Below are positions 8,801 to 46,531 of a stretch of DNA of 64,000 nucleotides, piece after piece. The translations under genes and the position numbers were made by a program. The notes under the pieces are model-generated. The model searched no databases, had not been told where the DNA came from, and saw only the letters and a program-made list of their open reading frames with translations. This stretch comes from Phycisphaerales bacterium (GTDB lineage: Bacteria > Planctomycetota > Phycisphaerae > Phycisphaerales > UBA5793): positions 222,031 through 286,030 of the forward strand of contig JADZAS010000030.1 of the NCBI GenBank assembly GCA_020852515.1, read 5' to 3'. Position 1 is the first letter of the stretch. Each line of letters begins with the position of its first letter.

Positions 8801-10312
8801 ATGAACCTGATCGCCATTTCACTCGCACTCGCCGCGGCTGCCGGCCCGCCGTTTGGCAGCGTCCGCGACACGCTGCCGCCGCGCTACGTCGAATCGTCCA
8901 TCGGCCTCGGCTCGCCGCAGTGGGATGGCGGCCGCACGATGCTGCGCCTGGCCGATCTCAATCTCGACGGAAATCCCGACATCGTCACCGTCGGCGATCA
9001 CGGCTCGCCGTTTGTCAACACCGACATGCACGGCATCACCGTGTGGTTCGGCGACGGCACCGGGCAGTGGCAATCCTTCCAGAGCGGCAACTTCGGCTAC
9101 GGCGGAGTCGCAGTCGGCGATGTGAACAACGACGGCCTGCCCGACGTCGGCTGGGGCGTGCATCACGACTACGGCTCGGGCGGCTTTGGCGATCGCGTCA
9201 TGGGCGTCGCGCTCGGCGACGGCACCGGCCGCAACTGGACGCCGTGGGACCAGGGCCTCGGCGAGAATGGCCAGTCGTGGGGCATGTTCGGCACCGAGTT
9301 CACTGACATCAACGTGGACGGCCGGCTCGACATCGCGTCCGTCTCGTTCGGCTGCTGCGACGGGTTTCACGCCTACCTCAACAACGGCGACGGCACGTGG
9401 ACTCGCTCGTTTGGCTTCCTCGGCGGCAACTCGACGATGGATGTCGCGGCCGGCGACGTGAACAACGACGGCTACGCCGACTTCGCCATCGCGCACCAGA
9501 ACGGCACGATCTACCTCGGCGACGGGCAAGGGGGCTTCACCATCGGCGATGAGAATCTGCCGCCCGGCGGCAACCTGGGGCGGCGCGGCGTCGCGCTGGG
9601 CGATGTGAACGGCGACGCCTTCGACGACCTGTCGCTGGTCAACAGCGCCGGCGGCGTCGAGGTCTATCTCCAGGCGCCCGGCTCATCGCAGTGGGTGCTC
9701 TGGAGCGAGGGACTGCCCGCGAGCGGCGCGTGGGAGGCGACCAAACTCGCCGACATGAACAGCGACGGCTGGACCGACGTCGTCGCGTTCGGCAACGGGC
9801 GACTCGCCGTGTGGCTCTTCGACGGCGATCGCACGTGGAGGGGCGCGGCGACGTTTACCGTGCCCAACCCCGGCGACTACGCGGCGATGGTGGTTGGCGA
9901 CGCGACGCACAACGGCCGGCCCGACATCGCCATCGTCAGCGACCAGGGCAGCCTCTTCAACTCGCGCAACAAGCTGCAGTTCTTCCGCGAGACGACCGAG
10001 CCGCGGGCGCTGCGCATCCGCGTTACGGGGCCGCCGAGGTATCGCACCATTCGCGAAGGCGCGGTGGTCTTCATCGACTGGACGTGCGCGGTGCCCGGCA
10101 ACGTGCCGGCGCGCGTGAAAATCGAATTGAGCGAAGCGGGCCGGCTCGGGCCATGGATGACCCTCGGCGACAACCTGCCCAACAGCGGGCGCTATCAGGC
10201 AAGGGTCGATGTGACGCAGTACAACGCCGAAGCGTACCTCCGCGCGACGGTGACGACGTCCAGCGGCAGCGCCGTGGATGTGGCGGGTCCGTTTTCGATT
10301 CTGCCTCGTTGA
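8801..10312 (+). CDS. secreted FG-GAP/VCBS-repeat (integrin-alpha-like beta-propeller) protein
   Basis: Signal-like N-terminus MNLIAISLALAAAAG. About seven repeats of the type GDVNNDGxxDxxxxxxxG (DLNLDGNPDIV, GDVNNDGLPDV, DINVDGRLDI, GDVNNDGYADF, GDVNGDAFDDL, ADMNSDGWTDV, GDATHNGRPDI). GGAGGAAG lies before the ATG. Confidence 0.8.
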   Translation: MNLIAISLALAAAAGPPFGSVRDTLPPRYVESSIGLGSPQWDGGRTMLRLADLNLDGNPDIVTVGDHGSPFVNTDMHGITVWFGDGTGQWQSFQSGNFGYGGVAVGDVNNDGLPDVGWGVHHDYGSGGFGDRVMGVALGDGTGRNWTPWDQGLGENGQSWGMFGTEFTDINVDGRLDIASVSFGCCDGFHAYLNNGDGTWTRSFGFLGGNSTMDVAAGDVNNDGYADFAIAHQNGTIYLGDGQGGFTIGDENLPPGGNLGRRGVALGDVNGDAFDDLSLVNSAGGVEVYLQAPGSSQWVLWSEGLPASGAWEATKLADMNSDGWTDVVAFGNGRLAVWLFDGDRTWRGAATFTVPNPGDYAAMVVGDATHNGRPDIAIVSDQGSLFNSRNKLQFFRETTEPRALRIRVTGPPRYRTIREGAVVFIDWTCAVPGNVPARVKIELSEAGRLGPWMTLGDNLPNSGRYQARVDVTQYNAEAYLRATVTTSSGSAVDVAGPFSILPR

Positions 10313-30046: not shown

Positions 30047-33000
30047 TCAGGGCTGCTCAATCATGATGCGGAACTGGCCGGGCCTGATCTCGTAGTCTTT
30101 CCTGCTGCCGTCGGGCCAGCGGACCTGAAACTGGAGCGAGTCGGTGGGCGGCAATCCCAGGCCGAAGTAGACCTGGGCCACGGACTGCGAGAGATAGCCC
30201 GAGCCTGCGGTGATCTCGGCGCTCTGGCTGCTGACGTTGCCGGTGCCGTAGAGACGGATGCGCGAGCCCACCGCCGCGGGATTGCCCGGCTTGCCCTTGA
30301 GCGTGATGACCAGCATTTCTCCCGCGACGCCAAGCGCCGCCGAGTTGTTGATAAAGGCGCGGATCGGGCCACCGTTCTGCGTGAGCGCTATGTCCGGCTG
30401 GCCGTCGTGATTGATGTCGCACACCGTCGCGGCGCGCCCGTCGCCGGGCACGAACAGCCCGCGGTCGTCGGTGGGGTTGGCCATGAAGTGGCACTCCCAT
30501 GCCCCCAGCAGAAACTGGCCGATGCCGCCGGTCCACCGGCCGGTCTCGGGCTCGCGATGACTGAAGTTCTGCACGAAATAAACGTCGGGCGTGCCGTCGC
30601 CGCCGAAGTCGGCCACGGCGGCGCCGTAGCCTGGCGACGCCTGCGCAATGCGCGTCAGCGTCTGGAAGGTGAACGCTGCAGCGCCATCGCCTGGCGTTCC
30701 GCCGTTGACGAGAACGCCGCTGGCGAGCGTATTGGCGGTCAGCACGTGCGCCTGTTCGAGCGAGTCGGGCGTGTAAATCTGCTCAAGCGTGGCGCCGGCA
30801 AAGTCGTGGTAGGTCGGCATGCGCTGCTTGACGAGCGGCATGGCTTCACTCGAACAACTCAGCCCGCGCACGGGCAGCAGGACGTGGTCGCTGCCGCTCT
30901 TGGCTTCGACGATGTCGTACTGGCCGTTGGCGTCGAAGTCGCTGTAGTAGATCATCGCCGGCTTGTCGGGCGCGGGGCTCTTGTACTTCGTGTTGAGGCC
31001 GGCGTTGAGGACGAGGTAGTCCATGTCGCCGTCGCCGTCGAAGTCGCCGGGCGTAACGGAGTTCCACCAGCCGGTGAGTTCGGCCAGGCCGGCTTCTTTC
31101 GTGCGCTCGACAAGTCGTCCGCCCGCGTTCTGCCAGTAGTGGATGGGGCCGTACTCGCAGGCGATGAGCAGATCGATAAAGCCGTCGTCGTTGGCGTCGG
31201 ACCACACGGCCGAGGTCACCATGCCCGAGTCGGCCAGGCCCGGCGCATCGGTCTGGGTCACGTCGGTGAATGTACCGCCGTCGTTGCGCAGCAGGCGGCT
31301 GGGCGGCGCGAGCGGATACTGATCGGGCACGGTGCGGCCGCCGACGAAAAGATCAACGTCGCCATCGCGATCATAATCTGCAGCGACGATGCACGAGGTG
31401 CTCGTGGCAACATCCGACAGGGCGCCGGCGGGCGCGTGCGTGAAGTGCCCGCTGCCGTTGTTGAGATAGAGCCGGTCGCGCAGCGCCGGATCGCCCTGCG
31501 GCCACTCCACGCTGCCGCTGGCGACGACGAGATCGAGGTCGTTATCCGAATCGACGTCGATCCACAGCACGGCCATGTCTTCGGATTCGCGGTCGTCCGC
31601 CCACGGCCCGTCGGGCGCTTTGGTGAAGTGGCTGTTGCCGTCATCGAGCAGGAGTTGCCCGACCTGCCCGGCCGGCGCGCCGATGAAGCAGTCGTCGTCG
31701 CCGTCACCGTCCGCATCACCCCATGCCATGCCCGGCCCGTTCTGCGAGAGCAGAGCCGGAAGCAGCGGCTGGGTTTCATATTCGTCGAACTCGCGCTCAG
31801 GCGCCGCGTCGGTGGTGAAGCCGGATGACGCATCCAGCGCGATGAACTGCGGAGGAGCGTTCGGCTCGCTGGCCACGCGAGCGGACTGCGCGGATTGCGT
31901 GATGGTGTACCAGCGGTCGGCTTCGAGCCGCTCGAAAGTCTGCTGCGAGCCGTCGGGCCAGATGACGGTCAGTTCGGCGACCATCGCGCGCTCGCCCAGG
32001 CCGAATTGCGCGACCGGCTCGGTGGCGGACTGGAAGCCGTGTGCCGGAAAGACCTGGCGCACCTGGTGGAGGTTCGGCCCGTTGAGCGCGATGCGGGCGC
32101 CGACGCCGAATCGGTTGTCGCGGGTGCAGCGCAGGCTGACGAGAAGGCGCCGACCGGTGTTCGAGTCGTTGCGGTAGATTCCCACGGGTTCATCGACGTT
32201 GCACACGACGAGATCGAGATCGCCATCGCGATCGAAGTCGGCCATGGCGGCGCCGTAACTGAGCGTCTCCTGATTGACGCCCCACTGATCGCCGGCGTCG
32301 GAGAAGTGGTAGTCGCCGTCGTTGCGCAATGCCGCGTTGGGCTCGCGGATTGGCGGAACCTGGCGGTACACGTTCCACTGCGCCTCCCAGCGCTGCACGG
32401 GGTCGCGCACGCCGATCCTGTCCATCTCGGCTTCGAGTGACTGAAGTTTGCGGGTGAGATCGGGATCGAAGGATTGGTTCGTCGTGCCGTTGGTGGCGAA
32501 GAAGTCGAGCAGCCCGTCGTTGTCGAGGTCGTTGAAGAGCACGGACCAGGTCCAGTCGGTGCTCGCCAGGCCGGCGAGGAAGCCGATTTCCATGAAGCGC
32601 GGCGAGCCGGTATTGAGATAGAGCATGTTGCGCATGTACTGGCGCGGCTCGGCGCTGAGCAGAAACCAGCGCGAATCGCCCATGTCACCCATCCACAATT
32701 TGGACATATAGTGCGTGCGGGCGCTCATGTCGGCGGCGAGGAAGTCCATGCGGCCGTCGTTGTTGATGTCGCCGAAGTCGGCGCCCATCGAGAACCACGG
32801 CGTGTACGGCACGGCCTGCTCGATGGCGTCGGCAAACGTGCCGTCGCCGTTATTGCGATACCAGCGGTCGGCATCCCAGAAGTCGTTGCCGACGTAGAGA
32901 TCGGGCAGGCTGTCGTTGTTGTAATCCCACCACGTGGCGCTCAGGCCGGGGTGGTTGCCGCTGATGCCCGCCATCTCGCCCACTTCGGTAAACGTGCCGT

Positions 33001-33787
33001 CGCCGTTGTTGTGATAGAGACGGTCGCGCTGGCCGGCCTTGATGACATAGCGCTCGTCGCGGCCGTTGATGCGGCGCATCTGCTCGACGAACATCTCCTC
33101 TTGGCCGGGTGCGAGCGTGGTGTGGCCGGCTGCATCGCGCTGCATGCGGGGCTGATCGGCGGCGGCGCCGGGATACATGCGGTTGGTCAACAGATAGATG
33201 TCCACGAAGCCGTCGTTGTCGTAGTCCGCCACGGCGGCCATGACCGAAGCGCCGCGGAAATCGAGCCCGGCCTTCTTAGCCGACTCGATGAACGTGCCAT
33301 TGCCCTGATTGACGTAGAGCAGGTTGGGGGCGTCGTAGTTGCACACATACAGATCGAGATCGCCGTCGTTGTCGATGTCGAGGAAGGTCGCACCCGTGCC
33401 CCATGCCGTGCCGAGATTGACGCCGGCCTGATCGGTGACGTCTTCGAAAACCATGTCGCCGACCTGGCGGTAGAGGCGGTCGCGGCCGATCTGGCTGGTG
33501 AGGTAGAGGTCGGGCCGGCCGTCGTCGTCGTAGTCGCCGATGCACACTCCACCGCCGGCGTAACTGTGCATGTAGAGGTGTTTGCGGGGGTTGTCCCAGT
33601 CGATGCGGTTCTCGAAGTCGATGCCGGTTTGCGCGGCGTCGAGCTGGGTGAACATCGTCGGCCCGGGCGCCGGCGCTGGCGGCTTGAGAGCTGTGGAAGT
33701 AATGCCCTCGCCCTGGCCCAGGGCGGCAGCAGTCAACGTGAAGACAATCAGCGCGCACGCGCCGCGGCGGGGGTGGGTGTGTTGCAT
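30047..33787 (-). CDS. secreted FG-GAP/VCBS + ASPIC/UnbV (CRTAC1-like) protein, two tandem modules
   Basis: Signal peptide MQHTHPRRGACALIVFTLTAAALGQG at ATG 33787. Many DxDxDGxxD FG-GAP repeats. Two ASPIC-like segments: GVGARIALNG...VIWPDGSQQTF and AVGSRIRLYG...VRWPDGSRKDY. Confidence 0.85.
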   Translation of the reverse strand: MQHTHPRRGACALIVFTLTAAALGQGEGITSTALKPPAPAPGPTMFTQLDAAQTGIDFENRIDWDNPRKHLYMHSYAGGGVCIGDYDDDGRPDLYLTSQIGRDRLYRQVGDMVFEDVTDQAGVNLGTAWGTGATFLDIDNDGDLDLYVCNYDAPNLLYVNQGNGTFIESAKKAGLDFRGASVMAAVADYDNDGFVDIYLLTNRMYPGAAADQPRMQRDAAGHTTLAPGQEEMFVEQMRRINGRDERYVIKAGQRDRLYHNNGDGTFTEVGEMAGISGNHPGLSATWWDYNNDSLPDLYVGNDFWDADRWYRNNGDGTFADAIEQAVPYTPWFSMGADFGDINNDGRMDFLAADMSARTHYMSKLWMGDMGDSRWFLLSAEPRQYMRNMLYLNTGSPRFMEIGFLAGLASTDWTWSVLFNDLDNDGLLDFFATNGTTNQSFDPDLTRKLQSLEAEMDRIGVRDPVQRWEAQWNVYRQVPPIREPNAALRNDGDYHFSDAGDQWGVNQETLSYGAAMADFDRDGDLDLVVCNVDEPVGIYRNDSNTGRRLLVSLRCTRDNRFGVGARIALNGPNLHQVRQVFPAHGFQSATEPVAQFGLGERAMVAELTVIWPDGSQQTFERLEADRWYTITQSAQSARVASEPNAPPQFIALDASSGFTTDAAPEREFDEYETQPLLPALLSQNGPGMAWGDADGDGDDDCFIGAPAGQVGQLLLDDGNSHFTKAPDGPWADDRESEDMAVLWIDVDSDNDLDLVVASGSVEWPQGDPALRDRLYLNNGSGHFTHAPAGALSDVATSTSCIVAADYDRDGDVDLFVGGRTVPDQYPLAPPSRLLRNDGGTFTDVTQTDAPGLADSGMVTSAVWSDANDDGFIDLLIACEYGPIHYWQNAGGRLVERTKEAGLAELTGWWNSVTPGDFDGDGDMDYLVLNAGLNTKYKSPAPDKPAMIYYSDFDANGQYDIVEAKSGSDHVLLPVRGLSCSSEAMPLVKQRMPTYHDFAGATLEQIYTPDSLEQAHVLTANTLASGVLVNGGTPGDGAAAFTFQTLTRIAQASPGYGAAVADFGGDGTPDVYFVQNFSHREPETGRWTGGIGQFLLGAWECHFMANPTDDRGLFVPGDGRAATVCDINHDGQPDIALTQNGGPIRAFINNSAALGVAGEMLVITLKGKPGNPAAVGSRIRLYGTGNVSSQSAEITAGSGYLSQSVAQVYFGLGLPPTDSLQFQVRWPDGSRKDYEIRPGQFRIMIEQP

Positions 33788-33843
33788 CGGTGAGGATATG
33801 CGCCGCTTCGACGACGGCGCACCGTCCGGCGACGCCGCCCGGA

Positions 33844-35250
33844 TCAATGCTCGACGCGGTGGCCGAGCATCGGGGCGATCTCGTTGACCATGCGGTCGCG
33901 GATCACTTCGTTGCGGGCCTCGAGATTCAGCCGCAGCACCGGCTCGGTGTTCGACTGGCGGACGTTGCACCACCAGCCTTCCTTGCGGAAGCAGTCGATC
34001 GTCAGGCCGTCAAGGTGGTCGATCTCGGCGACGTTTTTAAAGTGCTCTTCGAGGGCCTCGAGCGCGAGGTCTTTTTCCTCGTTCATGAAGTTGATCTCGC
34101 CGGACTGCGAGTAGCGGGCGATGGGCTTGATGAGCGTGCCCAGCGGCTTCCTGCTTTCCGCGAGCAGGCTGAGCACCTGGGCGAAGATGATGGCGCCGCT
34201 GTCGGCGTAGAAGTTGTCGCGGAAGTAGAAGTGGCCCGAGAGTTCGCCGCCGAACACGGCGTGCTTCTCCCGCAGGATCTTCTTCATGAACACGTGCCCG
34301 ACGCGCGACTGGATCGGCTTGCCCCCTGCGGCGCGGATCTCTTCCTCGACGGCGCGGCTGGAGCGGAGGTCGTAGACGATTCCCGCCCCAGGATGGCTCT
34401 TGAGAAAGTGCGTCGCCATGAGAGCGGTGAGGTGGTCGCAGCCGATGATCTCGGCCTTGTCATCGACGAAAATGCCGCGATCCGCGTCGCCGTCGAAGCA
34501 GATGCCGCAGTGCGCGCCGGTCTCGAGCACCTTCTGGCGCACGTCGGCGAGGTTCGAGGCAATGAGCGGGTTGGGATCGTGCGAGAACTTGCCCGTCGTA
34601 TTGCGGAAATGCAGTTCGATGATCTCCAGATTGGGCGCACCCTTGAAGACCTTCTTGAACATCGTGGCCGCCATGCCGTTGCTCGCATCGACGACGACCT
34701 TCATCGGTCGATCCTTGAGATCGAGGAATGAGAGCACGTGCTCGCGGTAGCCATCCCAGAAATCGCGCTCTTCAACCCGGCCGGCGGGTTCGGGACCGGG
34801 CGCGATCTTTTCGAAGTCCGCCATCGCGGCGTACTTGCTGATCTCGTCGAGGCCGGTCGTCTGGCCGATGGGCAGGGCCTGGCGGCCGCTGATCTTGAAG
34901 CCGTTGTACTCGATGGGATTGTGACTGGCGGTCACCATCACGCCGCCGGCGCAGTCGAGGTAGTTGATTGCAAAGTAGATGAACGGCGTATCGACCATGC
35001 CCACGTCGATGACGTGCGCGCCGTAGGTGCGGATGCCGTCCATGAGGGCCTTGGAGAGCGCGGGCGAACTCGGCCGCATGTCGCGCCCGACGATGATGTG
35101 CCGCATCATCGGGTCGGTGTCGCCCGAGGCGCTCGCCTGCTCGAGGAGGTAGCGGGCCGTGCCATAGCCGATCTTCCACGCAGTCTGCTCGTTGAGCGGG
35201 TTGGGGTAGACGGCACGAACGTCATAGGCCTTGAAGACTTTTCCGAGCAT
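33844..35250 (-). CDS. phosphomannomutase/phosphoglucomutase
   Basis: Active-site TASHNP, metal loop FDGDADR, and sugar loop GGELSGH. Start trimmed to MLGKVFKAYDVRA (ATG 35250). Confidence 0.9.
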   Translation of the reverse strand: MLGKVFKAYDVRAVYPNPLNEQTAWKIGYGTARYLLEQASASGDTDPMMRHIIVGRDMRPSSPALSKALMDGIRTYGAHVIDVGMVDTPFIYFAINYLDCAGGVMVTASHNPIEYNGFKISGRQALPIGQTTGLDEISKYAAMADFEKIAPGPEPAGRVEERDFWDGYREHVLSFLDLKDRPMKVVVDASNGMAATMFKKVFKGAPNLEIIELHFRNTTGKFSHDPNPLIASNLADVRQKVLETGAHCGICFDGDADRGIFVDDKAEIIGCDHLTALMATHFLKSHPGAGIVYDLRSSRAVEEEIRAAGGKPIQSRVGHVFMKKILREKHAVFGGELSGHFYFRDNFYADSGAIIFAQVLSLLAESRKPLGTLIKPIARYSQSGEINFMNEEKDLALEALEEHFKNVAEIDHLDGLTIDCFRKEGWWCNVRQSNTEPVLRLNLEARNEVIRDRMVNEIAPMLGHRVEH

Positions 35251-40867: not shown

Positions 40868-42043
40868 TCAGTTGGAAGGGGCGGACGGCGATGCGGTTGC
40901 ACCCGCCGCCTCGGCCTCGTTGCGCACGATCATCACCTTGGCCGTGGGATAGAGTTTTTCATTGCCCTCGGTTACAAGCAGCACGTCCTCCTCGAGGGGA
41001 CCGCTGACGACGAAGCGCCCGATTCCCGCGCTTGAGCGGATGTCGATGTTTACCGGATACGCCGCGCCATCGCGCACGGCGTAGACATAGGGCCCCGTCG
41101 GCGACATAAGCACCGCATCGCGCGAAACGGTCAGCGCTTCATCAAACTCCTTGGACGGCACCCAGCCCTTCACCGCCATGCCCGGCTTATAGCGGCCGTC
41201 TTCGTTCTCGAGCGCGACCTTGACCGGATAGGTCCGGGCCCGTGGATCGCCGATGGGCACGATCGCTCGGATCGAGCCGATCACGGCGTCTTCGAACGCC
41301 GCAGGCAGGATCTCGAGGCTCATGCCCACGCTCAACTGCGAGACGAGCGACTCGGGCACGTCGAGCACGGCATCGACCTGGCCGAGTTCGACGAGTTCGG
41401 CGATGTCGCCGCCCACGCCGACCCACTGGCCGACTTCAGCGAGCTTGATGACGATCACGCCGTCGAAGGGCGCGAGGATGGTCTTGTTTTCGAGGCGCTG
41501 CGTGATGAGATCGATCCGCGCCTGGGCGAGGCGGACACTCTCCTGCGCCTGGCGCAGGGCCGCGCGTTCGGCGAGGGCCTCGCTGCGCTTGTCGGAGATT
41601 TCCTTGGGCTGGGCGGCGCCGCGAGCCTGCAGTTCCTCGAGCGACTGGAGATCGGCATCGGCCCACTCGCTGCGGGCCCGATGTTCATCAACGCTCGCCT
41701 GGGCCTCGGCCAGTTCGGCTTCCTGCTCGCGCAGGTTGAGTTCGAGTATGGCCGAGTCGAGCTCGGCAAGCACTTCGCCGGCCTTGACCGTATCACCCGC
41801 GTCAAAGGGCACGCGGAGGACGATGCCGGGCTCTTCGGAAGCGACCGTCGAGCGGCGCCGGGCGGCGATCTCGCCCGTGATGCGGTGCATGCGCGTGACC
41901 GACTCGCGGCGGACGGGATCGACCGCCACGGGCGAAGCGGGCTGGGCCAGCGCGGCCGGCGCCAGCAAGGCCGTGGCAAGAAGCGCAAACAAAAGCCTGG
42001 GAAGCGTCCGCGGGCGCGCCGCGGGCGTCGGGTCATACTGCAT
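40868..42043 (-). CDS. RND efflux periplasmic adaptor (membrane fusion protein, HlyD-like)
   Basis: Signal/anchor LLFALLATALLAPAALAQ, a coiled-coil hairpin region (LELNLREQEAELAEAQASVDEHRAR...), and beta-barrel-like C-terminal parts. GGAGGA lies before ATG 42043. It sits 61 nt upstream of the RND gene. Confidence 0.85.
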   Translation of the reverse strand: MQYDPTPAARPRTLPRLLFALLATALLAPAALAQPASPVAVDPVRRESVTRMHRITGEIAARRRSTVASEEPGIVLRVPFDAGDTVKAGEVLAELDSAILELNLREQEAELAEAQASVDEHRARSEWADADLQSLEELQARGAAQPKEISDKRSEALAERAALRQAQESVRLAQARIDLITQRLENKTILAPFDGVIVIKLAEVGQWVGVGGDIAELVELGQVDAVLDVPESLVSQLSVGMSLEILPAAFEDAVIGSIRAIVPIGDPRARTYPVKVALENEDGRYKPGMAVKGWVPSKEFDEALTVSRDAVLMSPTGPYVYAVRDGAAYPVNIDIRSSAGIGRFVVSGPLEEDVLLVTEGNEKLYPTAKVMIVRNEAEAAGATASPSAPSN

Positions 42044-42129
42044 TCCGGATGTCCTCCGCTGCCGATCGGGCAGCCGCTGCATTGGCCCAATCATATGGGG
42101 TCCGCCAAGGGCCCATCCGCCGGGCGGGT

Positions 42130-42163
42130 GAAAAGCCACAACCCGCCTGAGAACGGCGGGTTG
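42130..42163 (-). terminator. intrinsic terminator after the small-paralogue pair
   Basis: The minus strand reads CAACCCGCC-gttctca-GGCGGGTTG followed by TGGCTTTTC. Confidence 0.6.
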
Positions 42164-42251
42164 GGAAGGTTGAGATGCGGCGGGGAACAGGACCTTCAAC
42201 GGGGCCCGGGACCGCTGCGTGCGCGGCCAGGCGGCGCCGGCCTGTCCGGGA

Positions 42252-42653
42252 TCAGTGCGGTATTTGCACGACGTTGCTCGTTTGACAGCTTGCGTCCGGA
42301 TAGTTCAGCGTCTGCAGATAGCCGCCGCAGGCGCGCGGGCCGGCGGTTCCTTCGAAGAAGGCGAATCCGTTTTCATCCGCCCGTGCTGCCGTCGCAATCT
42401 GCAGCCCGTGCCAGTTCAGACCGAGTCTTGTTCCCGCGCACCAGTGGCCGAAGGGAAGGACATAGGAGCCGCTCATCGGAGCGAACAGCAGCAGAACGGA
42501 CCGATCCGGCCGCACTCCACGGACATCAGCGAGCACGAAGCCCGGGCACGAGCCTTCGAGCGTCAGCACCGGCTGCGCTGTCGCCGGCGCGCTCCAAATG
42601 GCCAGGGACGCCGCCGCGATGAGCACGAGTTGGAATGCACGATTCGCTTTCAT
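42252..42653 (-). CDS. small secreted 4-Cys protein, paralogue A (unknown family)
   Basis: AGGAGGA before ATG 42653. Signal peptide MKANRAFQLVLIAAASLAIWSAPATAQ. The mature ~106 aa are ~58% identical to paralogue B. Confidence 0.75.
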   Translation of the reverse strand: MKANRAFQLVLIAAASLAIWSAPATAQPVLTLEGSCPGFVLADVRGVRPDRSVLLLFAPMSGSYVLPFGHWCAGTRLGLNWHGLQIATAARADENGFAFFEGTAGPRACGGYLQTLNYPDASCQTSNVVQIPH

Positions 42654-42664
42654 GGCCGTTCCTC

Positions 42665-43063
42665 CTATCGTGGGATCCGCACGACGTTGCTGATCTCGCA
42701 GCCACCGCTTGGATAGTTCAGTGTCTGGAGAAATCCGCCGCACGCCAGCGAGTTCACTTCGCCTTCAAAGAGCGCCACTCCGTTCTGATCCGCCACGACT
42801 CCCGCGACTTGCCGCAGCCCTCGCCAACCAAGCCCGAGTTGAACGCCCTGACACCAGTTGCCGCGCGGCAGCACAAAAGTCCCTTCGTGAGGCGCGAAGA
42901 GGAGAAGAATGAACTTCTCAGGCCGTGCATTTCGAACTTCCGCCCGCAGCAGACCCGGGCATTCACCTTCGAGAGTGAGAACGGGCTGCGCCAGACCCGA
43001 GCGCGCCGGAGCCAGCACCGTTGCCAGACTCGCGACGACGGCGGTCAGGACTCTCGTGAACAT
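42665..43063 (-). CDS. small secreted 4-Cys protein, paralogue B (unknown family)
   Basis: AAGAGG before ATG 43063. Signal peptide MFTRVLTAVVASLATVLAPARSGLAQ. Blocks shared with paralogue A include PVLTLEGxCPG, LLLFAP, ACGGxLQTLNYP and SNVVxIP. Confidence 0.75.
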   Translation of the reverse strand: MFTRVLTAVVASLATVLAPARSGLAQPVLTLEGECPGLLRAEVRNARPEKFILLLFAPHEGTFVLPRGNWCQGVQLGLGWRGLRQVAGVVADQNGVALFEGEVNSLACGGFLQTLNYPSGGCEISNVVRIPR

Positions 43064-43196
43064 GGCTGAAACCTCTTTGGGCCGATGTTACATGATATGA
43101 GTATGCCGCCGGCGCATCGGACCTGCTATGAGAAAGTCGCCCTGATCTGGCGCTTTCATGGCGACCTCATGAGATTCGGCGGCGAACCGTCTGCGC

Positions 43197-43236
43197 GCGA
43201 AGAAAAACCGGGGCGGCGCTGAGCCTTGCCCCGGCT
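43197..43236 (-). terminator. intrinsic terminator after the SBBP-repeat gene
   Basis: The minus strand reads CCGGGGC-aaggctcagcgcc-GCCCCGG followed by TTTTTCTTC. Confidence 0.65.
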
Positions 43237-43262
43237 TGATTTCGACGATCGTTTCCGGCGCG

Positions 43263-44969
43263 CTACTGCACCTGCGTGGCCACGACATTGCTTGCCTGGT
43301 TGTACTGCGCGGCCTGGAACCACACGCTGGCCCCGGAAGATCCCCGTGGAATGGGCAGCGTCCAGACCGCGGTGCCCGCCGGATCGCTGACCGCCACGCC
43401 CCCCGCCTGCCGCGGGTTCTGCAGCGAGAGCGTTACATTGAGGAATGGGACAAAGAGGTTGCTCGTCCCGGACGTGCTGTACCCGAGGTAGCAGTCGGAG
43501 GAGGGCTCCACGTTGGAGAAGGTAAAGGTCGCGGGCTGACCGGGCAGGAGCGGGTCAGGATTGACGACGAGCAGCGGTGGCGGCGCGGTGGTGTACTTGG
43601 CGACGAGCGAGTCGGTTCCTGTGCCGATACCGACCGAAGAGCCGCAGACCACGACGCGTCCCAGATCATCCACGTCCACGGCGGACCAGAAGTCGTCCGC
43701 GTGGGCGGGGCCGTCGGTGATCACGGTGTCGAGCAATTGCCCGTCGGGTGAATACTTGAGCAGCCAGGCGTCGTCGCCGCGGCCATAGCCGTACCAGCCG
43801 AAGCCGGCGACGAGCAGGTTGCCGTCGGCGTCGAGGGCGAGGTCGTTGCCCCAGTCGTCGCCGAACCAGTCGCTGCGGAAGATCTGCGCCCAGGCGAGGT
43901 TGCCATTGCTGTCCCAGTGGACGGTGCCGGCGTCGTTTTCGCCGCCCGTGGTCATGGTTGAGCCGGAGACGTAGGCGCCGCCGGCGCCATCGGGCAGGAC
44001 GAGCCAGCTGTAGTGATAGCCGCTGTTGCCGCCGTAGCGTCCTTCCCACTGGAACGACCCGTTGGTGTCGTACTTGACAGTGCAGTATTCAAAGTCGCTG
44101 TTAAGGAAGGCGGAATCGGAGATGCCGGTGGCAAAGACGTTTTCGGAGCCGTCGATGGAGATGGCGTAGAGCGATTCGTCGCCGTGGTACTGGCTGTCGA
44201 AGAGTCGGGACCAGAGGAGGTTGCCGGCGGGGTCATACTTGAGCAGGCCGTAGTCGCGATCTCCGTTGTTGTTGCTCACGTCGCCGCCGACGTAGGCGTT
44301 GCCCGATGGCGAGACCGCGATCACCCAGCCGTAGGAATTGTCCAGCGGGCCCCGGAAAGTCCGCACCCACAACTGGCTGCCGGCGGCGGAGTACTTGATC
44401 GTGACGTATTCCCAGTACCCGTCGGCGGCGTACTGATAGCCGGTCACATAGACACGGCCGGCGGCATCGAGGCCGACCGCTTCGATCCCGAAGGTCTCGT
44501 CGTCGCCGTTTCCGGGCCCGTTGTAACGGCGCGCCCACGTGAGCTGACCGCTGGGATCGTACTTGAGCGTCGTGATGTCGCTGTCGCCGCCGACTCCCGC
44601 AGACGAGCCGCAGATGATGATGTTGTCGTTGGCGTCGATGGCGAGGCTTCCGAAGAACTCGTAGCCGTGGCCGGGGCCGTCGTAAGTCTGCGTCCACAGC
44701 AGGCGACCAGTGCGGTCGTACTTGCGCAGCAGCACGTCGTAATCCGTGGCGGGGTCGTAGGCCCAGCCAACGGTCACGGCATTACCCTGGCTGTCGATCT
44801 TCACGTTGAAATCGACTTCCTCCTGACCCGCGCCGTTGTCGGTGCGGGTCTGCCAGACCGTCCTCCACTGCGCCAATGAAGACGAGGCGGCGGCAAGGAC
44901 AGCGCCGACCGCGAGCGCGCGCACGAACCACCTTCCCGCAAGGGGATGACTCTTCTCTCTCCTGAACAT
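43263..44969 (-). CDS. secreted beta-propeller repeat protein (SBBP-like repeats) with distinct ~105-aa C-terminal domain
   Basis: Signal peptide MFRREKSHPLAGRWFVRALAVGAVLAAASSSLAQ. Roughly 50-aa repeats of the type D..T.KY...G...W...Y.GPG.G.D......D..G..YVTG. The C-terminal domain ends QASNVVATQVQ. Confidence 0.75.
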   Translation of the reverse strand: MFRREKSHPLAGRWFVRALAVGAVLAAASSSLAQWRTVWQTRTDNGAGQEEVDFNVKIDSQGNAVTVGWAYDPATDYDVLLRKYDRTGRLLWTQTYDGPGHGYEFFGSLAIDANDNIIICGSSAGVGGDSDITTLKYDPSGQLTWARRYNGPGNGDDETFGIEAVGLDAAGRVYVTGYQYAADGYWEYVTIKYSAAGSQLWVRTFRGPLDNSYGWVIAVSPSGNAYVGGDVSNNNGDRDYGLLKYDPAGNLLWSRLFDSQYHGDESLYAISIDGSENVFATGISDSAFLNSDFEYCTVKYDTNGSFQWEGRYGGNSGYHYSWLVLPDGAGGAYVSGSTMTTGGENDAGTVHWDSNGNLAWAQIFRSDWFGDDWGNDLALDADGNLLVAGFGWYGYGRGDDAWLLKYSPDGQLLDTVITDGPAHADDFWSAVDVDDLGRVVVCGSSVGIGTGTDSLVAKYTTAPPPLLVVNPDPLLPGQPATFTFSNVEPSSDCYLGYSTSGTSNLFVPFLNVTLSLQNPRQAGGVAVSDPAGTAVWTLPIPRGSSGASVWFQAAQYNQASNVVATQVQ

Positions 44970-45120
44970 GGTTTTGCTTCCTGATTGTTCGGGGCGCGGC
45001 CGGCCGGTGCGGTCGAGCGCGCTCCTCAGCCACACATCCAAACCCTCGCCGCGTCCGCGCGGCGAGACAGACGACGCATGAAGATACGTCGGTGTCCGCA
45101 TCGAGACAACGCCCGCGCGT

Positions 45121-45158
45121 GTGAGAAACGGACGAGGCGGCCGACGTGCGGCCGCCTC
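45121..45158 (-). terminator. intrinsic terminator candidate after clpX
   Basis: The minus strand reads GAGGCGGCCG-cacgt-CGGCCGCCTC (perfect 10-bp stem) followed by GTCCGTTTCTC. Confidence 0.55.
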
Positions 45159-45187
45159 AGTGTGGCAAGTGTCGATGCGAGCGCGGC

Positions 45188-46531
45188 TTACGCCGATTCC
45201 TTCTTGCGCTTGGTGGTGAGCTGGGCGAGGGTGTACTTCGCGTCGATCGCGGGGCGGTCGATGATGTAGGTCACGCCCTCGGAGTCGGCGTCGGGCAGGT
45301 CGTACATGAGATCGAGCATGACCTCCTCGAACACGGCTCGCAGGGCGCGGGCGCCGGTCTGGCGGGCCATGGCCCGCTCGGCGAGGCAGCGCATCGCGTC
45401 GTCGGTGAACTCCAGTTGCGCGCCTTCCAGCGTGAACAGGTGCTGGTACTGCTTGATCAGCGCGTTCTTGGGCTCGGTCATGATCTGAATGAGCGCATCG
45501 AAGTCCAGCGGCAGCAGCGGCGTGATGACCGGCAGGCGGCCGACGAGTTCGGGAATGAGGCCGAACTCGAGCACGTCGTCGGCGGTCACCTGCTTCATGA
45601 GCGCTGCCTTTTCGTCGATGGCGCGCTGCTCATCGACTCCCTGATCGGCGCTGAAGCCGATGCGCCGCTTGCCCAGGCGCTTCTTGACGATCTCGTCGAT
45701 GCCGACGAACGTGCCGCCGACGACGAAGAGGATGTTGGTCGTGTCGATCTGGATGTACTGCTGCTCGGGGTGCTTGCGGCCGCCCTGAGGAGGCACGTTG
45801 GCAACGGTGCCTTCGAGCATCTTGAGCAGGCTCTGCTGCACGCCCTCACCGGACACATCACGCGTGATCGAGACGTTGTGGCTGGTCTTGCCGATCTTGT
45901 CGATCTCGTCGATGTAGATAATGCCGCGCTGCGCCGCCTCGACGTCGTAGTCGGCGGCCTGGAGGAGCTTGAGCAGCAGGTTCTCAACGTCCTCGCCGAC
46001 GTAGCCCGCTTCGGTGAGCGTGGTGGCGTCGCCGATGGCAAACGGGACGTTGAGCATGCGCGCCAGCGTGCGGGCCAGCAGCGTCTTACCCGAGCCGGTG
46101 GGCCCGATGAACAGGACGTTGCTCTTGTCGATCTCGATGCCAGTGTCCTTGTCGAGCTGGCTGAGGCGCTTGTAGTGGTTGTGGACGGCGACAGAGAGGG
46201 CCTTTTTGGCCTCGATCTGGCCGATCACGTACTGGTCGCAGAACTCTTTGATCTGGCGGGGGCTGGGGATGGTGGAAAACGTCTGCCGACCGGCGGACAT
46301 GCGCCGCCGCTCCTGCCGAAAGATGTTCTGGCAGAGGTCCACGCAGTTGGAGCAGACGTAGACGTCGTTAGGCCCCTCGACCATGGGGCCGACTTCGCGC
46401 GAGGTCTTGCCGCAGAACGAGCAGGTGGTGACCCGCCGGCCCCGGAAGCCGCTCTTGCTGTCTGCGCCATCGCCGGCCTGACGGTTGTTTGGGTCAGTCC
46501 CGCCGGAGTCGCCATCCCGATTCTTGGCCAT
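45188..46531 (-). CDS. clpX: ATP-dependent Clp protease ATP-binding subunit ClpX
   Basis: N-terminal zinc ribbon CSFCGK...CSNC, Walker [12 protein letters not shown], and a full ClpX body. AAGGGGAA before the ATG. Confidence 0.95.

Follow-up and report, generated by a model that had tools for sequence, protein, structure and literature searches.

What do two short, adjacent genes on the minus strand of a Phycisphaerales genome encode, and do they share a module with the large propeller-repeat protein encoded next to them? We addressed this question in a stretch of 64,000 nucleotides (assembly GCA_020852515.1, contig JADZAS010000030.1, positions 222,031 to 286,030), the whole of which is called the window below. 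A sequence-only reading of the window had described the two products as paralogous small secreted proteins with four cysteines and had suggested that a third, diverged copy closes the upstream beta-propeller protein. We found that the small proteins are, by sequence, exported members of a domain family which lies outside the curated libraries, and that they consist of this module only. The domain, as modelled, is an immunoglobulin (Ig)-like beta-sandwich of about 105 amino acids with four invariant cysteines. At the profile level only, the upstream protein ends in a cysteine-free member of the same superfamily. This is a new sequence family with a cysteine-free sister branch; its fold and its kind of architecture are both familiar ones.

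The two open reading frames (ORFs) are paralogous (BLASTP E 5e-51, 56% identity across 131 amino acids), and all the blocks which the sequence-only reading had listed as conserved, PVLTLEGxCPG, LLLFAP, VLPxGxWC, LGLxWxGL, ADxNGxAxFEG, ACGGxLQTLNYP and SNVVxIP, are common to both. Its count of 63 identities in 108 mature positions comes to 62 in 107 in our alignment, and the spacing of 11 nucleotides between the genes, with AGGAGGA for the second of them, is as it had described. The latter motif shares bases with the TAG that stops the upstream gene, and the ATG at 42653 follows it after 6 nucleotides. At 34 of the 62 identical residues the codons differ synonymously; dN/dS is 0.26 between the paralogues, and when each is compared with its orthologue in locus L002, which comes from a Planctomycetota metagenome-assembled genome (MAG), it is 0.16 for the upstream and 0.13 for the downstream gene. 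The duplication must therefore be old, and both genes are under purifying selection. Conservation in relatives, on which the earlier proposal had depended, is borne out, since orthologues occur in many MAGs and metagenomes; the downstream gene is 85% identical to a gene of L002, and its exact product has been called on 11 public contigs. Both products begin with a Sec-type signal peptide. Cleavage had been placed after AQ; the -3/-1 rule favours a site before the conserved Q, most likely after ATA or GLA, and signal peptides of the form AxA/Q (the slash marks the cleavage) are kept across 33 free-standing homologues. Could the two frames nevertheless have arisen by chance in DNA rich in G+C, or be copies of a C-terminal domain that are in decay? 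The G+C content of the window is 66%, and it holds many long spurious ORFs on both strands, but the conservation statistics given above (dN/dS 0.13-0.26, synonymous differences, orthologues in many MAGs and metagenomes) refute this idea, and the signal peptides, the Shine-Dalgarno sequence and a confident predicted fold also speak against it. We give it practically no chance and treat the frames as real genes.

The module does not stand alone. A word-indexed search returned six close homologues only, one of them named, from a Phycisphaerales MAG. An exhaustive profile search of the library, seeded with an alignment of eight sequences (A1), gave a very different picture: 986 cluster representatives matched at E<=1e-3 and 322 at E<=1e-10, which is independent support for family membership. 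With a hidden Markov model (HMM) of 161 domains, the two window domains themselves included, the upstream product scored E 3.5e-36 and the downstream product E 2.2e-37. Architectures were counted in the best 156 of the 986 representatives. In 152 of these the protein ends no more than 5 residues from the end of the domain; 40 consist of a signal peptide and the domain only, and the other 116 carry the domain fused after other regions, so that it is nearly always the C-terminal part of a bigger exported protein. The passengers are very diverse and all have Sec signals; they include FG-GAP/VCBS repeats, SBBP/DUF5122 propellers, DUF7948, right-handed beta-helices and InlB-B-like repeats (Flg_new_2). 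All four cysteines are present in each of the 161 aligned domains, in the motifs G-x-CPG, C-x-G(T/V), ACGG and C-x-(T/I)SNV, every one of which is found in both window proteins. Conservation is strongest in the last strand, C-x-TSNV-x-I, which lies 1-3 residues from the C-terminus; the small proteins of the window terminate 3 residues past their SNVV motif. One apparent member, P0010 (5811 amino acids, E 5e-39), was rejected, because 30 partial matches to profile positions 89-133, each of them weak, add up to its score. This cumulative false positive calls for caution in reading the count of 986. By eye, P0010 is a giant protein with what appears to be a tail of the T9SS (type IX secretion system) type.

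The module had been thought to fall outside known families, and this agrees with our searches. No Pfam or NCBIfam model matched over the domain in the window proteins, in 33 family members or in ten fused members, a PDB sequence-profile search with the domain gave 0 matches, and a literature search found no account of such a domain. The AlphaFold model of the small protein (predicted local distance difference test, pLDDT, 86; predicted template modelling score, pTM, 0.76) is a sandwich of eight beta-strands, the first of which starts two residues past the predicted cleavage site. Foldseek searches of the PDB returned only generic matches to Ig/fibronectin type III (FnIII), neocarzinostatin and carbohydrate-binding module (CBM)-like domains, with template modelling (TM) scores of 0.4-0.55 and E values of 1e-3 to 1e-2. 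The fold class is thus Ig-like, and the structural comparison, with all TM scores under 0.55, did not place the domain in a described functional family.

More effort was needed for the proposed third copy in the propeller protein. The body of this protein resembles propeller-repeat proteins, and its assignment to the SBBP family is sub-threshold: it scores 14.7 bits with Pfam SBBP (PF06739; E 0.031, cut-off 20.5), 21.8 bits with Pfam DUF5122 (E 2.3e-4, cut-off 27), 67.8 with NCBIfam Lepto_SBBP_lipo (NF047494; E 7e-19, cut-off 400) and 63.4 with NCBIfam delta_60_rpt (E 1.2e-17, cut-off 76.5). Its C-terminus is not significantly similar to either small protein by BLASTP (E 0.05-0.9), nor is the tail significant when the 4-Cys HMM is run on the window (E 11), and profile methods were therefore required. 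The tail has one close homologue, P0157, in which the same tail follows FG-GAP repeats. A phmmer search with the tail brought up an M14 carboxypeptidase (4e-15) and a family of exported proteins of about 560 amino acids (8e-9 to 1e-3), matched in each case in the C-terminal domain, and hhalign aligns the window sequence plus P0157 with the tail of the latter family at 97.1% and E 7e-11. A Cys-poor profile of eight sequences then aligns with the 4-Cys profile of 161 sequences at 96.1% and E 3e-9, with a score of 51.8 and 83 columns in register. The controls stayed far lower, with a mean of 11.3 (standard deviation 2.1, maximum 18.3) for 150 column shuffles and a score of 11.4 for the reversed alignment. 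The Cys-poor HMM also matches 4-Cys proteins directly, at 1e-10 to 1e-5 (P0126 1.6e-10, P0175 7e-9). The third copy suspected by the sequence-only reading is thus upheld by profiles and fails in pairwise comparison, and the propeller protein adjoining the pair is the sole protein in the window with a Cys-poor domain. The M14 zinc carboxypeptidase, which contains CarboxypepD_reg, likewise has the Cys-poor domain at its end (E 1e-21). It is encoded at 11858-14656 of L006 and at 12005-14803 of L014-L016, about 2 kb downstream of the small genes and the gene for the 560-residue protein.

Is the arrangement of free-standing copies beside a large protein peculiar to the window? Close relatives of the pair were found at 11 genome loci, all from MAGs, ten of which are labelled Planctomycetota, Planctomycetaceae or Phycisphaerae and the remaining one Vicinamibacteraceae (isolate 'PLA1'); metagenomes supplied ten further loci, and three HMMs were mapped over all of them. 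The free-standing small genes form tandem arrays of 1-5. In 16 of the 20 assessable distinct loci a gene for the exported protein of about 560 amino acids, whose final 105 or so residues are a Cys-poor domain, lies directly 3' of the small genes, at gaps of 20-68 nucleotides. The recurring feature is, as read from the gene maps, a set of free-standing 4-Cys genes adjoining a large exported protein with a Cys-poor end, and in the window the propeller protein appears to fill this role. The 560-residue family, which has no Pfam, NCBIfam or PDB match, is found at L001 10981-12666 and also in L005-L011, L014-L017, L019, L020 and L023-L026, always directly after small 4-Cys genes. It is absent from the window, where its HMM matches only the propeller-protein tail (E 6.8e-5); a homology of the propeller body to this family was considered and rejected, because the match is restricted to the C-terminal domains. 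L002, with the closest relatives of the window pair, has an array of three genes, and just past it (9184-9543) there is an ORF of 120 amino acids which matches only the first ~50 and last ~47 positions of the 560-family profile and looks like an internally deleted relic of the larger gene. Judged by eye from the translations, this array lies between a MurC-like gene and MurB/Ddl-like genes. A further neighbour, at 7062-7721 of L014-L016, is a thioredoxin-fold AhpC/TSA/Redoxin gene directly upstream of the small genes in one lineage; it may have to do with the making of disulfides, or its presence there may be coincidental. The sequence-only reading had seen a functional clue in a nearby resistance-nodulation-division (RND) pump. 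We rejected this association, as in every related locus the small genes are without an RND pump or adaptor beside them. Since the neighbourhood is not conserved, it tells us nothing of function, and the AcrB/HlyD pair of the window is an ordinary unrelated neighbour. Of the two kinds of partner, RND genes and a large protein with a related end, only the second recurs beside the small genes in related loci.

The features of the window locus are collected in Table 1. Hairpins flank the pair on its own strand, as had been described. That at 43205-43237 has a GC-rich stem followed by UUUUUCUU, and the 56-nucleotide stretch around it, an outer helix of 4 base pairs included, folds at -25.4 kcal/mol; a simple pattern scan missed it because the stem is bulged. 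The other, at 42136-42165, has a stem of 9-11 base pairs followed by a weaker CUUUUC and folds at -20.5 kcal/mol (z -4.56), a stability reached by none of 200 shuffles. From the hairpins alone we infer that the pair may be transcriptionally insulated. Independent gene calls from Logan contigs L027-L030 (SRR11294020, SRR11294023, SRR8750958 and SRR11294035) give the order propeller protein (568 amino acids), small proteins (132 and 133 amino acids) and RND adaptor (391 amino acids). They set the propeller gene at 43263-44969 and the start of the adaptor at 42043, which makes the second hairpin intergenic. At least four public sequencing runs have yielded assemblies with this identical arrangement of four genes, so that environmental sampling has come upon the source organism repeatedly. 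The longest adaptor ORF (40868-42199, minus strand, 443 amino acids) has a TTG start and reads through the terminator-like hairpin, while the product from 42043 begins MQYDPTP and has its own signal peptide. The other neighbours of the pair are ClpX, the RND pump and unrelated genes. An Rfam search of 41800-45400 found nothing. About 8 kb from the pair, at 30047-33973 on the minus strand, the window also encodes an FG-GAP/ASPIC(UnbV) repeat protein of 1308 amino acids; we detected no end-domain of either variant in this protein, even though such a domain is often present in FG-GAP proteins elsewhere.

Table 1. Features of the locus in window coordinates, in the order of transcription; a slash in a peptide marks the predicted signal-peptide cleavage
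Feature	Position	Strand	Description and basis
Signal peptide and beta-propeller-repeat body of the 568-residue protein	43581..44969	-	SBBP-, delta-60- and DUF5122-like, all sub-threshold
Cys-poor domain variant, C-terminal ~105 residues of the propeller protein	43266..43580	-	phmmer, hhalign, shuffle control, Cys-poor HMM
Terminator-like hairpin and UUUUUCUU	43200..43237	-	Between the propeller gene and the small pair; RNA fold
Upstream small gene	42665..43063	-	132 residues; Sec-type signal peptide, about residues 1-25 (...SGLA/QP), and 4-Cys Ig-like domain of 107 residues
Shine-Dalgarno AGGAGGA of the downstream small gene	42660..42666	-	Read directly in the sequence
Downstream small gene	42252..42653	-	133 residues; signal peptide (...PATA/QP) and 4-Cys Ig-like domain of 107 residues
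Terminator-like hairpin and weak U tract	42129..42165	-	Between the small pair and the RND adaptor start at 42043; pattern scan and fold

What, then, might these real genes do, given their export signals, the fold class, the size of the family, its C-terminal position, the homology of the three copies and the conserved coupling of the genes? We propose that the end-domain serves the planctomycete envelope as a modular unit for attachment or assembly. After Sec export the four cysteines would presumably form two disulfides, and the domain would tether the diverse exported passengers through contacts between domains (Ig-Ig) or between the domain and the envelope. The free-standing small proteins would then act as partner or adaptor subunits and would pair with the adjoining large protein by way of its related C-terminal domain. 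For this general reading, which includes both the identity of the domain family and the pairing of partners, we would put about equal weight on its being right and on its being wrong; within it, the family identification is well supported and the mechanism of pairing is much less certain. Several points weigh against it. The interaction or pairing itself, a localization beyond the inner membrane and the disulfides are all things that we infer. Three of the 156 proteins break the C-terminal rule, P0130 with an internal and a terminal copy, P0152 with an internal copy and P0155 with an N-terminal one, so that C-terminality is strong and not obligatory. L003 and L004, MAG loci with arrays of four and five small genes, have no Cys-poor partner within 8 kb, and the single small gene of L018 is also without one. 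In the window the large protein lies upstream, set off by a terminator-like hairpin and 200 nucleotides, whereas the canonical cassette has it downstream in an operon. Lastly, the AlphaFold model of the propeller C-terminal domain, made from a two-sequence alignment, is all-beta and has a pLDDT of 51, too low for the model to be relied on as to a shared fold. As to the exceptional proteins, the internal copy of P0152 is followed by an apparent Kelch-like propeller and the N-terminal copy of P0155 by an apparent propeller of the sugar-dehydrogenase type, both judged by eye.

Other explanations of the same domain have to be considered. It may be that it is a carbohydrate- or cell-wall-binding module of the CBM kind, through which enzymes and adhesins would be fixed to glycans of the cell itself or to polysaccharide outside it, with the small proteins as free lectins. 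The fold is a beta-sandwich with a weak Foldseek likeness to glucan-recognition and CBM56 domains among many Ig-like matches, passengers such as pectate-lyase-like beta-helices, M14 peptidase and propellers belong typically to proteins of the surface or to those that degrade polymers, and internal or N-terminal placement is tolerated. These matches are, however, non-specific (TM 0.4-0.5, E above 1e-3 save for one unrelated match), CBMs are not normally confined to the extreme C-terminus, and the conserved coupling of 4-Cys genes with a Cys-poor-domain protein would be left unexplained; we consider this a minor possibility. Could the domain instead be a C-terminal sorting or secretion tag of an undescribed planctomycete pathway for outer-membrane translocation and surface attachment, resembling the T9SS, with the small proteins as minimal cargoes, decoys or regulators? 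Such a tag would suit the extreme C-terminal placement in 152 of 156 proteins, the variety of Sec-exported passengers, an Ig-like sandwich as large as the C-terminal domain of the T9SS and the fact that the last strand, C-x-TSNV-x-I, is the most conserved motif. It is harder to reconcile with the lack of a sequence match to Por_Secre_tail or any sorting-domain model, with the absence of a conserved machinery gene adjoining the cassettes and with the internal and N-terminal copies. Moreover, a quarter of the members are domain-only, which is unusual for a pure export tag, and the hosts of the close relatives are Planctomycetota, in which to our knowledge the T9SS is not known. On balance this explanation seems unlikely.

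Perhaps both variants of the end-domain mark the cargo of an as yet undescribed outer-envelope sorting or attachment pathway specific to Planctomycetota, and the small proteins and the 560-residue partner, which would not be ordinary cargo, are components dedicated to it as adaptors or as a scaffold for anchoring. We regard this as rather improbable; if it were true, the pathway would be the functional counterpart of T9SS C-terminal domains or sortase signals. The presence of one to five paralogous small Ig-like genes next to a large two-part protein with a homologous last domain also recalls fibres or lattices, in which the small proteins would be pilin-like subunits and the large proteins would join through their C-terminal domain, as the tip adhesins of chaperone-usher systems do. 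Yet among the neighbours tested we saw no gene for an usher, a chaperone, a sortase or pilus assembly, and the modelled sandwich is complete, with no missing strand and no N-terminal extension for donor-strand exchange, which makes such an assembly very improbable.

The likeliest reading is still the one proposed first, that of a modular unit for attachment or assembly. Large repeat proteins are exported in great number by Planctomycetota, whose envelope is unusual, and little is understood of the way in which it retains or displays them. A family of about 1000 clusters, together with its Cys-free branch and the two-part cassette, provides a testable handle on the organization of surface proteins in this phylum. 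At the minimum, two new domain-family definitions are justified, and the annotation of hundreds of 'hypothetical' proteins can be corrected.

How does the domain compare with known systems? Chaperone-usher pilins with two-domain tip adhesins of the FimH or PapG type offer a formal parallel, since there too small Ig-like arrays adjoin a large protein with a homologous C-terminal domain; they differ in that the predicted fold of our family is complete and has no N-terminal extension, and in that no usher or chaperone genes were seen. Generic bacterial Ig-like and FnIII domains and the seven-strand sandwich of the neocarzinostatin type share the fold class. Neocarzinostatin apoproteins have about 110 amino acids and two disulfides. 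They and the Ig/FnIII domains have no motifs in common with the window family, however, and Ig/FnIII modules are usually internal tandem spacers, whereas the window family is a single terminal domain. Closer in architecture are PPC (PF04151) and similar C-terminal beta-sandwiches, which are likewise accessory domains on secreted proteins, and here the M14 carboxypeptidase bears the Cys-poor variant; the family differs from PPC in having no HMM match, passengers that are mostly non-enzymatic repeat proteins, free-standing copies and a conserved gene coupling. The T9SS C-terminal domain of Bacteroidota (Por_Secre_tail, TIGR04183 / PF18962) is likewise an Ig-like sandwich of about 80-110 amino acids, placed at the very C-terminal end of many Sec-exported proteins which are not related to one another, with its most conserved motifs in the last strands. 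Neither these models nor related ones matched the window proteins at E<=1 or the 33 family members at E<=5, and the window family differs in its four invariant cysteines, in the Planctomycetota hosts of its close relatives, in its many domain-only proteins in tandem arrays and in that no PorV/PorU-type neighbours were seen beside the small genes. Although the sequence test failed for both, by analogy the domain probably works most like the T9SS C-terminal domain or a terminal sandwich of the PPC type.

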